Source of the DNA: Dictyostelium discoideum
Taxonomy: Eukaryota
DNA: 64,000 nt
Direction of reading: 5' to 3'
Assembly: GCA_000004695.1 (NCBI GenBank)
Contig: CM000153.2
Location: forward strand, 2,496,001 to 2,560,000
Position 1 is the first letter of the stretch, and the number at the start of each line of letters is the position of its first letter. A program made the translations under genes and the position numbers. Positions 36,768 to 49,422 of this stretch are shown piece after piece. Under the pieces are notes generated by a model. It saw only the letters and a program-made list of their open reading frames with translations, did not search any database and was not told the origin of the DNA.

Positions 36768-39700
36768 ATGGTTTCATCTAACACCATAACCACTACATCA
36801 AAAAATAAAAATAATAATAAAAATAATAATAAAAATAATAATAATAACTTAACTATAAATGATGTAATTAATGATATTTATGATGAAAATGGCATAGATG
36901 GAATAAATTTTGATTATTTTTTAAGTAAATTTCAAGATATTTCAAAAAAAACCAATTCATTTGAAAAATTAGTTGATGACAATGGTGATTTAGTACCACA
37001 AAAATATCAACCATTAAATTCTACTTTCCCAATGTCTGAAAGCAATTGTGTTCTTCAAATGAAATATCTCTTATGGAAGAATTGTCAGTTATTAACTCAA
37101 AAAGTAACTTCAAATAATAATAAAGAAAATGATGAAAATGTAAACAACAACAACAATAATAATAATAATAATAAAGGAAGTACAATCGATGATAATAACA
37201 ATAATAGTATCAATAATATTAATAATATTAATAAAGAAGAATCAACAATATCAAATAATAAAGATATAACATCAGATATTTTTCTTAGATTTCTATTAGA
37301 TTTATTAAAAGATCAAAATGAAATTCTAAGAGAAAAAGGATATAAATTAGTGAAAGATTTCTTTTCAAAAGTTACCATTGGCTCAATGGCTCACTTTAAA
37401 GAATCATTAGTTAATGAGGCAATCTCAATATTCATTGGAATTATTAAAAATGATAAAATCGATCAATCCAATAGATTAGATATAGCATCATCTTTAATTT
37501 CATTGGTATTGGCTAAAAATGATATTAATTTAATCTCAAAAGTTTTAAAATTAATTTTATCATTTAAATTCTTTACAAAGTATGTATACAATATATCATT
37601 TAATAAATAAATAATATAATATTTATATATTAATTATATTAATTTTAATTTTAATTTTAAAAATCTAAGTTATCCAAATATTTTAAAAATTGAAAATGAA
37701 AATTATTTACCATTGGAAGTATTTAAATTCAAGATGGATGGATATCAATATAAATTTTCAAAGGAATTTAATGAAAAAGGTAAAGAAAATGATGAATTTG
37801 TAATTAATAGTTTGGAAACTTCAATAAAGACAATTTATTCAATGACCTATGATGATGGATTTGTTTATATTCATTGTAATTTAGGTTTATTCAAATTTAG
37901 TTTATCATTGAATATGGAGTTTAAATTATGCGATTATAAAACTGATTATCATACAAATCCAGTTACATATGATTTCAATGATCAAGAGACAACAATCACT
38001 GATAAGATCATATTGGAAAGATCTTGGTTATTCATAATTGATGATCATATTTATTTTAGAAGTTTAGATATGGAACAAGGTATAATCTCTGTAATTAATA
38101 AACATACATTTGAAGAGACATTTATGTTTATTGAGAATGAATTAAATCCATTAGGTACAAATCCTTATACATTATTTCAAGATTATGAATTAAAACAAAT
38201 TGGTATTTTAGAATTACCAATTGGTTCATCAACTCCAAAAATTAGATATATAAAATTAACAACAACAAATGAAAATGATAATAATAATAATAATAATAAT
38301 AATAATAATAATAATAATAATAATAATAATAATAATAATAATAATAATAATAATAATAATATTAATGGAAAGATTACAAATGAATCAATTTTAAAACAAG
38401 TTTCATCAGATCATATTGATTTATTTAAAAATTTACAATCTATTTCATCAGTAAATTTAAAAATAAAAGATCAAGAAAATTTAAATTTATCATCATTATC
38501 AAATATTAAATCAATTTATCCTTCTGAAATGGGTGGTATATTTTATTTAACAAATTCAAATGATTTATTTTTAATTGGTACAAAGTATGTAGTATTAATA
38601 TTTAAAATAAAAATAAAATATATATATATATTAATGTCTATTTTTTTCAAAAAGTGGAATTATAAATAATCAAGATAATTTACCAACTTATTTTAAATTA
38701 CCAAATGATGGTGATATAAAGATAATAGAATTTTCAGATCCAGATTTTTATGTTCTTGACAGTGAGGGTATTTTACATATGTTGGAACCAGATGGTTTCA
38801 AAAAGATTGATGTTAATAATAATCCAATAATAGTTGATATTAGTGTATCAACCCAAAAATTATTTTGTTATACAAATAAGGGTAAACTATTAACCATTGA
38901 TAGATTGGATCCAAAGGATCAAAGATCATCCGATTTACCAATAAATATGACAATTGAGGCAATGAAATCTTTTGGATTATCAAAAGATACAGATATATTA
39001 TTTTTATTATCAAAGAATGAAGTCTATAAAGAAACACAATTCACTCGTACTAAAGAGAAATGTGAAGTTTTAGCTGATCATGGTGATGGTAAAGCATCAG
39101 AAACAACAACAATTGAAAAGTTTGATACAATCTTTGGTGGATTTTCAACTTCTATATTAATTGGTGAATTACCAAATGGTGATGGTGGTGGTGGTGGTAA
39201 TTCAGTTTGTTTCATAAAAGGTGATAATTCATTTGGACAGTTGGGTTTGGGTGATTTCAAATCTTCATTCGATGTGTACAGACAAATCAAAGATTTACCA
39301 TTCCCAATTGAAGGTACTAAATTCTATCCAAGTTTAACATTCACATTGGCTCTAACACTCGATCAAAAACTTTGGTATACTGGTAATATTAAATCATTGA
39401 AACCAGTTAATCAATTCACTCTCTTCAATGATATCTCAATATTCAATCCAGAATTAGAATCAATTAAAGATTTAAAAACTACTGAATTTGGTTTCTCAAT
39501 CTTAAAATCAAAATTACCACAACTTTATTATCGTAGATTCTTTTCAAGAATTCAATGTTATTCTTCAAATCAACATTTAGGTATTATAATTCCAAATTAT
39601 TTAAATGTTTGTGAAATTTCTAAAAAACAACAACAACAACAACAAAAACCAAATTATTTATTATTTAATAAAAAGACATTATCTTTTATTTGTTCAAATC

Positions 39701-48700: not shown

Positions 48701-49422
48701 TTGAATCACCCTCAATTCAATTGGAATGTGGCCACGTATTTCACCATGATTGTACCAAGAAATTGATTGAATCACGTTGGAATGGTCGTATCGTTTTCAA
48801 TTGTTTACAATGTCCAATCTGTAAACAAGCCATTAAACATCCATCATTGAAAACTTTAACCAATGAAATTGAACATATTCGTGATGAAATCATTCGTAAG
48901 GGTAAACTTCGTATAGAATATCAAAATCTTAATAACGACCCATTGTTATTGGCTGGTGGTAGATTCGAAGGTCGTCCAGATGATTATGTTTTGGATCAAT
49001 TCTCTTATTACCTTTGTTTCAAATGTAAACAACCTTATTTCGGTGGTCTAAATCAGTGTGCTGCTGCTGCCGCTTTACCTTCAAACTTTAATCCTGAAGA
49101 ATTGATTTGTGGTGGTTGTTCCTCTGGTGATGATCCTCAATCCATTTGTCCAAAACATGGTAAAGATTACCTCGAATTCAAATGTAGATACTGTTGTTCT
49201 GTGGCAGTTTGGTTCTGTTTTGGTACCACTCACTTTTGTGATACTTGTCATGATAACAATGGTAGACTCACTGCTCAAACAAAGTTTGGTCAATGTCCTT
49301 TAGGTCCTGGTTCTGTAGAATTACCAAAAGGTCCTTGTCCTTTAGGTTTAAAGAATCATTATGAAGCTGGTAAAGAGCAAGCTTTAGGTTGTGGTGTTTG
49401 TCGTAATGTTAAAGACTTTTAA
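36768..49422 (+). CDS. PHR-family giant RING E3 ubiquitin ligase (MYCBP2/PAM/Highwire/RPM-1 orthologue), about 4160 aa, 3 exons
   Basis: join(36768..37579,37670..38584,38655..49422). Both introns have GTATGT donors and (a)ag acceptors with matching phase 2. RCC1-like repeats: GDNSFGQLGLGDFKSS... PHR domain: ERFGNSNSCWSYSGYNIDGISFTCDKDIYVKGIGVYGDKG...FTFCEG, at about 41620-42010. DOC/APC10-like domain: NPEMLASLFDDTTNTFWEAPSNSSITIKMEP..., at about 46745-47060. B-box: CQNHDDGQTEAFYHCQGCNLNLCNECDRFLHLSKKFRDHSRT. RING-H2: CMICWTESLVESPSIQLECGHVFHHDCTKKLIESRWNGRIVFNCLQCPICKQ. C-terminal Zn/Cys-rich module: ...YLCFKCKQPYFGGLNQCAAAAA...[55 protein letters not shown]...ALGCGVCRNVKDF*. Many low-complexity inserts (poly-S x57, poly-T, poly-N, acidic and KEK repeats). 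Confidence 0.85.

Follow-up and report, generated by a model that had tools for sequence, protein, structure and literature searches.

The 64,000-nucleotide stretch of Dictyostelium discoideum DNA analyzed here (GenBank assembly GCA_000004695.1, contig CM000153.2, positions 2,496,001 to 2,560,000; hereafter the window, whose own numbering is used throughout) carries on its + strand, from 36768 to 49422, a large gene whose product, judged from its sequence, is very probably the full-length D. discoideum orthologue of the PHR proteins MYCBP2/PAM, Highwire and RPM-1, that is, a 4,164-residue E3 ubiquitin ligase with a RING-Cys-relay (RCR) module. The gene is built from three exons. Exon 1 (36768..37579, with its ATG at 36768) holds codons 1-270 and two nucleotides of codon 271, exon 2 (37670..38584) contributes 915 nucleotides, and exon 3 (38655..49422) spans 10,768 nucleotides including the stop codon; joined, they form one reading frame of 12,495 nucleotides, in which 4,164 codons precede the only stop. 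The two introns, of 90 nucleotides (37580..37669) and 70 nucleotides (38585..38654), both have the form GTATGT...AG. Features of the gene described below all lie on the + strand.

Read without splicing, the locus gives a different impression. The list of open reading frames (ORFs) of the window contains three separate same-strand ORFs (36768-37610, 37713-38669 and 38779-49422), and unspliced exon 1 reaches a stop at 37610, as would be expected if the three blocks were separate genes, or the N-terminal blocks a mis-joined neighbor, and the ligase consisted only of the 3,547-codon ORF from 38779. We give this arrangement next to no chance, since both introns are short, AT-rich and bounded by GTATGT...AG, and their removal restores one frame with zero internal stops; the window as a whole is AT-rich (G+C of 16-35% in 2-kb windows). 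The splice joins, predicted from genomic sequence, were checked by conservation among dictyostelid orthologues: the split codons at the two junctions, 271 and 576, fall inside well-conserved blocks that align without gaps with the Synstelium, Acytostelium and Cavenderia proteins. A single BLASTP match to the Synstelium orthologue, whose residue 1 aligns at D. discoideum residue 30, runs over D. discoideum residues 190-1143 and thus crosses both junctions, and in a second assembly that is 99.8% identical (GCA_054883475.1), a separately made annotation has at the same position a product of 4,151 residues, nearly the 4,164 predicted here. The three-exon gene of about 4160 codons described in an earlier note on this DNA is thereby supported as one predicted gene by its restored frame and by conservation. 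Upstream of it, a 100-N assembly gap (36537-36636), with a C4 G17 run before it and GGG after it (36513-36639), ends 131 nucleotides 5′ of the ATG, so that the promoter region of the ligase gene is partly unsequenced in this assembly.

Orthologues were collected by searching 1.84 billion representatives exhaustively with HMMER, residues 3240-4164 serving as the query; 2,227 matches were returned at E<=0.001, 424 of them reaching E<=1e-30. A word-indexed search with the 260-residue RCR module listed proteins shorter than 445 residues only. The best came from Synstelium polycarpum, Acytostelium subglobosum and Cavenderia fasciculata (F4PXT8, "RCR-type E3 ubiquitin transferase"), together with the MYCBP2/RPM-1 proteins of vertebrates, echinoderms, insects and nematodes, choanoflagellate proteins, and a 3,951-residue protein of Cantina marsupialis. 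When the full D. discoideum protein was compared by BLASTP with the 4,673-residue python MYCBP2, five matches were obtained, all colinear between the PHR domain and the C-terminus: the PHR domain (residues 1564-1721 with python 1148-1310), a CUB-like domain (1884-1999 with 1929-2063, E=9e-13), a region preceding the DOC domain (3028-3157 with 3561-3702, E=9.5e-6), the DOC domain (3268-3465 with 3742-3987) and the C-terminal part (3532-4164 with 4004-4673; 687 columns, 36% identity, E=7.5e-120). Crinoid MYCBP2 gave six ordered matches, as the D. discoideum PHR domain pairs with both animal copies, and the same conserved blocks recur in the choanoflagellate, nematode, insect and echinoderm orthologues. 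These colinear matches, with an intact RCR module at their end, uphold the earlier note's reading of the gene as a full-length PHR-type E3 ligase in an amoebozoan.

The C-terminus carries the closest likeness. Searched against PDB sequences, the last 328 residues find human MYCBP2 RCR structures best, 5O6C (E=1.4e-82) and 6T7F (E=2e-81), and the 5O6C alignment covers 257 residues with small gaps only, at ~48% identity across the RCR module. Within it, a RING-H2 finger (48670..48825, residues 3915-3966) of the pattern C-x2-C-x14-C-x-H-x2-H-x2-C-x19-C-x2-C yields weak RING matches in a whole-protein Pfam scan and, scanned alone, reaches 28.8 bits against the zf-RING_2 gathering cut-off of 27.3. 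The tandem-cysteine (TC) domain follows (48985..49419, residues 4020-4164), supported by the 5O6C alignment, residue mapping and conservation among 309 RCR domains gathered by homology search. Its upstream catalytic cysteine, in the mediator loop, is Cys4044 (49057-49059, in GGLNQC), which corresponds to human C4520 and to chain position 143 of 5O6C; the downstream one is Cys4097 (49216-49218, in VWFCFG), corresponding to human C4572. His4108 (49249-49251) corresponds to the general base H4583, and Glu4058 to the active-site glutamate E4534 in the 5O6C register. The human numbers F4573, F4578, F4586, H4583 and E4534 are presumed here to be those of Pao et al. 2018, and they are consistent with the register of the 5O6C sequence. 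All Cys and His zinc ligands, including those of the RING-H2 pattern, are invariant in an eight-sequence alignment that takes in D. purpureum, human, sponge, Daphnia, nematode and metagenomic proteins. Across the gathered family, the first catalytic cysteine is Cys in 285 of 287 aligned sequences (two exceptions), the second is invariant in 277, and the histidine is invariant in 276. The earlier note had recognized the C-terminal block as the tandem-cysteine region of MYCBP2 with its catalytic cysteines and had called for an alignment to the MYCBP2 catalytic pair; that alignment matches both cysteines, with every zinc ligand kept.

The pocket beside the second cysteine is less uniform. We take the phenylalanine pocket to be formed by F4573, F4578 and F4586 of the human enzyme. 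The two phenylalanine positions next to the second catalytic cysteine are F/W and F across the 309 domains, and both are kept here (F4098 and F4103). The third, that of F4586, is Asn4111 in D. discoideum and His in other dictyostelids, and it varies over the whole set (F in 114, Q in 45, H in 28, A in 23, P in 18 and N in 15). The RCR proteins of the wider search, many of them 500-900 residues long, mostly carry Gln or Ala at this position.

Upstream of the catalytic end, the protein contains one canonical PHR domain (41620..42057, residues 1565-1710), which matches PF08005 over its full length (1-151 of 151) at E=1.3e-34 in a segment scan; in the whole-protein scan it is the only PHR domain reported (E=2e-33). 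The earlier note had posited a PHR domain and named failure to find one as a refutation, and its claim stands on this match. By position this is the counterpart of animal PHR2, and the distance to the next conserved domain agrees with that of animal PHR2. By sequence, PHR domains number two in animals and one in dictyostelids. A cryptic first PHR-fold domain, missed by Pfam, is predicted at 40045..40557 (modelled residues 1040-1210, core ~1050-1190), within a conserved block specific to dictyostelids that AlphaFold2 models as a beta-sandwich, with a predicted local distance difference test (pLDDT) score of 71. Foldseek agrees with a PHR fold, and hhalign aligns the block with the PHR-domain alignment (90.7%, E=1.2e-6). 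The two folds are spaced by ~375 residues here and by ~340 in python MYCBP2. Because of the modelled fold, the hhalign match and this animal-like spacing, the tandem-PHR architecture is, as far as the models go, conserved, its first copy having diverged beyond the reach of Pfam; the protein thus has in predicted fold the two PHR domains that characterize the family.

Between the PHR domains and the centre lies another predicted beta-sandwich (42568..42927, residues 1881-2000), the CUB-like domain of the BLASTP comparison, for which Pfam gives zero matches in D. discoideum and in python alike. Its AlphaFold2 model (pLDDT 74) resembles the CUB domains of MAp19, MASP-2 and C1s, with a template modelling score of ~0.6. 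It is matched in all 24 long orthologues except P0271, a protein in which the domain is present and which is not full length, and its E-S-x-H-P-Y motif is invariant in the long PHR orthologues examined (animals, choanoflagellates, dictyostelids and Cantina). Profile searches against the PDB with the cryptic PHR and CUB-like regions returned nothing, and both were identified by fold comparison only. These two modelled domains are additions to what the earlier note had described.

Because Pfam missed the DOC domain and left the RCC1 and B-box matches below threshold, the remaining parts of the scaffold required profile searches against the PDB and comparison of orthologues. The RCC1-like region (38415..39627, residues ~520-900, interrupted by intron 2) is recognizable by sequence only in its blades at residues 732-822 (39121-39393), with the motif GDNSFGQLGLGD. 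A dictyostelid profile of residues 505-960 finds only RCC1-like propellers in the PDB, the RCC1-like domain (RLD) of RPGR first (E=6e-10), followed by HERC1, RCC2, UVR8, RCC1 and HERC2, and hhalign pairs the region with the animal MYCBP2 RLD (88.7%, E=2.6e-6). The Pfam RCC1-like models are sub-threshold by segment (WD40_RLD at E=3.8e-4 and a second model at 0.11), and the Synstelium orthologue matches WD40_RLD at 4.4e-10. The conserved region preceding the DOC domain (45910..46527, residues 2995-3200) has jackhmmer matches that reach animals, choanoflagellates and Cantina. For the DOC/APC10-like domain itself (46729..47127, residues 3268-3400), Pfam APC10/DOC models give zero matches, whole or by segment, in the D. 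discoideum protein, whereas python MYCBP2 3740-3847 scores above the ANAPC10 cut-off; a profile of four dictyostelid sequences finds human APC10 as its sole PDB match (E=3e-7), and a mixed DOC profile also matches the DOC domains of CUL7, CUL9, HECTD3 and yeast Doc1. A conserved region between DOC and B-box (47518..48147, residues 3531-3740) forms part of the 687-column python match. A B-box-like zinc finger (48172..48297, residues 3749-3790; C-x2-H ... C-x2-C-x4-C-x2-C-x4-H-x7-H) is likely present, though sub-threshold, with Pfam zf-B_box at E=4.8e-4 (20.7 bits against a cut-off of 24.1) and at E=0.017 in the segment scan. Ten Cys/His/Thr/Ala columns of its motif, C-x-N-H-D-D-G-x-T-x-A...C-x2-C...C-x2-C-x4-H-x7-H, are invariant in 14 orthologues, of which 10-13 match B-box models, and the best PDB match is the Midline-1 B-box (E=7.6e-4). 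Of the domain order that the earlier note had proposed, the RCC1-like, PHR, DOC and RING-H2 elements are recovered by profile or Pfam tests, and the B-box only below threshold.

This arrangement of domains speaks to whether the protein is a PHR orthologue at all. The RCR module is more widespread than the giant PHR proteins: the 2,227 cluster representatives returned at E<=0.001 include many of 500-900 residues, and neither the N-terminal 1,500 residues nor the centre of the D. discoideum protein has any direct BLASTP match to animal MYCBP2. It could accordingly be supposed that only the RCR cassette is held in common with MYCBP2, through domain shuffling, and that the protein is one of the many other RCR proteins. 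Such an origin is very improbable in view of the five matched blocks (the PHR and CUB-like domains, the region before DOC, DOC itself and the C-terminal 633 residues), which python and crinoid MYCBP2 carry in an identical order, the two PHR folds set apart by nearly the animal distance, and the RCC1-like region placed upstream of the PHR folds, as in animals.

The central third of the protein (42928..45909, residues 2001-2994) consists largely of low-complexity sequence, acidic or made up of Ser, Thr and Lys, with one block, residues 2680-2900, conserved among dictyostelids only. Compared with the animal centre by hhalign, it yields a probability of <=1.4%, in a test whose sensitivity is limited in low-complexity sequence. 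The filamin, Nup98-GLEBS-like and SH3-like Pfam matches of the python MYCBP2 centre have no counterparts in the D. discoideum protein, for which Pfam reports no filamin, GLEBS or SH3_3 match. In animals, contacts with FBXO45/FSN-1 and RAE1 also map to the centre. The SPRYD3/Myc-binding stretch of MYCBP2 lies there as well, at 2550-2825 (PMC12664034).

Several observations weigh against a full equivalence with the animal ligases. In every search the RCC1-like signal is confined to ~1.5 blades around GDNSFGQLGLGD, and the B-box, as a sequence match, stays sub-threshold with respect to the Pfam cut-off. As no likeness between the centre and its animal counterpart is detectable, the protein may differ in the partners that it uses. 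Asn4111 stands where human MYCBP2 has F4586, and with one of the three pocket phenylalanines replaced, a threonine preference is not assured; the preference for Thr over Ser may differ. Relay and esterification themselves are ascribed to the D. discoideum protein by homology, and a "threonine-directed" activity is better regarded as an expectation drawn from the human enzyme than as a given. The earlier note had offered the gene as a model for threonine-directed RING-Cys-relay ubiquitination, of which the intact catalytic residues hold and the threonine preference, considering Asn4111, becomes uncertain.

In the human enzyme, the ubiquitin-conjugating enzyme (E2) bound by the RING hands ubiquitin to a cysteine in the flexible mediator loop, a second cysteine takes it over from there, and Thr or Ser finally receives it, with a histidine as general base and a three-phenylalanine pocket accounting for the threonine preference (PMC6769291); the C4520S mutant of MYCBP2 is catalytically dead (PMC12664034). 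By homology, the RING-H2 finger of the D. discoideum protein would bind a ubiquitin-charged E2, the ubiquitin would be transthiolated to Cys4044 on the flexible mediator loop and relayed to Cys4097, from which a hydroxyl group of the substrate (on Ser or Thr) would accept it with His4108 as the general base, while the upstream beta-sandwich, propeller and DOC domains would most likely recruit substrates or partners. Alternatively, a true orthologue might act in Dictyostelium as an ordinary RING E3 or as a scaffold, with relay or hydroxyl specificity lost or altered. The Asn in the presumed threonine pocket would suit this possibility, as would the mediator-loop sequence near the first cysteine, which differs (GGLNQCAAAAAL vs GGEARCDAEAGR). 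We consider it unlikely, since all four full-length dictyostelid proteins and a C-terminal fragment from D. purpureum, despite ~50% overall divergence, retain the cysteine pair, the histidine and glutamate, and two of the three phenylalanines, which argues for selection on catalysis. With a working relay as the preferred reading, one may speculate further that the dictyostelid PHR ligases represent the ancestral form of the family, with tandem PHR, CUB-like, DOC and RCR parts and without the animal centre, that they select substrates without an F-box partner, and that their native role perhaps lies in endolysosomal or macropinocytic membrane traffic. We advance this idea tentatively and think it, on balance, doubtful; the trafficking role is suggested by a published co-precipitation with Dd5P4 that depended on the F&H-binding patch. 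If true, an older function in trafficking would be the source of the neuronal roles of PHR proteins, and a haploid, knock-out-friendly system for hydroxyl-directed ubiquitination would be available in Dictyostelium.

The gene is already known, as it had been annotated (DDB_G0284853, UniProt Q54P29) and named MYCBP2/Highwire-like in 2019, and it is not a discovery of the present analysis. Luscher et al. 2019 reported DDB_G0284853 as one of four proteins identified by mass spectrometry as enriched with the OCRL homologue Dd5P4 in Dd5P4-GFP immunoprecipitates, in a manner dependent on the F&H-binding patch (PMC6743453). They called it "a mycBP2/Highwire-like protein" and assayed two of its peptides, neither of which bound (PMC6743453); both published peptides, GFVYIHCNLGLFK and a 13-residue one, are exact substrings of the translated protein. 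A 2024 preprint lists DDB_G0284853 (Q54P29) as "RING_Zn-finger-like" among proteins enriched by anti-O-fucose antibodies, again by mass spectrometry. The names "RCR-type E3 ubiquitin transferase" and "highwire" are likewise already attached in databases to dictyostelid and choanoflagellate orthologues. A specialist review still gives the range over which MYCBP2 is conserved as C. elegans to mammals, and a search of the literature on MYCBP2/Highwire with Dictyostelium or the gene identifier found no functional study, the functional work found being in animals only. What the present analysis adds is the putative first PHR and CUB-like domains, the apparent lack of the central region seen in animals, and the variability of the third pocket position. 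The residual value of the gene is practical, not conceptual, in that it offers an expressed RCR ligase in a tractable amoeba. An orthologue that is catalytically intact by sequence, in a haploid, tractable, non-neuronal organism, provides a route to the native substrates of ester-linked ubiquitination, and it could serve to probe which portions of the giant scaffold are required.

Low-complexity windows cover ~856 of the 4,164 residues (about 20%). The heavy expansion that the earlier note had described is thus real, with poly-Asn runs of 27 and 22, whereas its run lengths for Ser and Thr need correction: the poly-Ser tract (45622..45765) comprises 48 codons, not 57, and is made of 47 TCA and one TCG instead of a pure (TCA)n, and the longest poly-Thr run is 22, not 28. 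In the second assembly the poly-Ser tract has 45 codons. That assembly (GCA_054883475.1, CM142510.1) is 99.8% identical over 21 kb, with 1 mismatch and 36 gap positions, and the differences are almost all in homopolymer or microsatellite length; differences fall at 45622-45765, 49514, 49626-49632, 49797-49799, 52971, 54994-55004, 55767-55769 and 55805. Two ORFs on the - strand, 42665-42985 (106 codons) and 44619-45146 (175 codons), lie antisense to the low-complexity coding region and were dropped as genes, being most likely by-products of the repeats.

Other genes flank the ligase gene. On the - strand, three ORFs at 30025-34988 encode Rap/Ran-GAP (E=5e-56) and RALGAPB N-terminal (E=1.5e-7) domains; they probably belong, as exons, to a single large RapGAP/RalGAP-like gene that is divergent from the ligase gene. 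Downstream on the + strand are a CDP-alcohol phosphatidyltransferase gene (51724-52458), a gene with SAM and protein-kinase domains (53067-54923) and an Armadillo-repeat RhoGEF-PH gene (56979-59903), the last annotated with 1,215 residues in the other assembly.

Set beside human and mouse MYCBP2 (PAM/Phr1), the D. discoideum protein would have the same parts in the same order, namely the RCC1-like region, two PHR folds, and the CUB-like, DOC, B-box-like, RING-H2 and tandem-cysteine domains, and it keeps the catalytic cysteine pair, the histidine, the glutamate and all zinc ligands at the ~48% RCR identity noted above. It differs in being ~500 residues shorter, in having a first PHR domain and most of an RCC1-like region that have diverged beyond Pfam detection, and in lacking filamin, GLEBS-like and SH3-like matches as well as any similarity to the animal centre. 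It further differs in its Asn at the F4586 position and in its ~20% of low-complexity sequence, with homopolymers of up to 48 residues. Outside the animals, full-length PHR-type proteins with an RCR module also occur in other non-neuronal organisms, namely in the choanoflagellates Salpingoeca rosetta ('highwire', F2U2L8) and Monosiga brevicollis (A9V5V6) and in Cantina marsupialis (a stramenopile transcriptome; 3,951 residues); by sequence, Monosiga and Cantina show one PHR domain, and Salpingoeca and Microstomoeca, both choanoflagellates, none. The nearest systems are the other dictyostelids, whose proteins in Cavenderia fasciculata (F4PXT8, 3,603 residues), Acytostelium subglobosum (XP_012756017, 3,518 residues) and Synstelium polycarpum (3,368 residues) are 560-800 residues shorter than that of D. 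discoideum, mainly owing to its low-complexity inserts. They can nevertheless be aligned with it over nearly their full length, including the N-terminal region and the block at residues 2680-2900, with 49-54% identity over the last 925 residues, and the D. purpureum fragment DICPUDRAFT_41102 is 69% identical over the RCR module.

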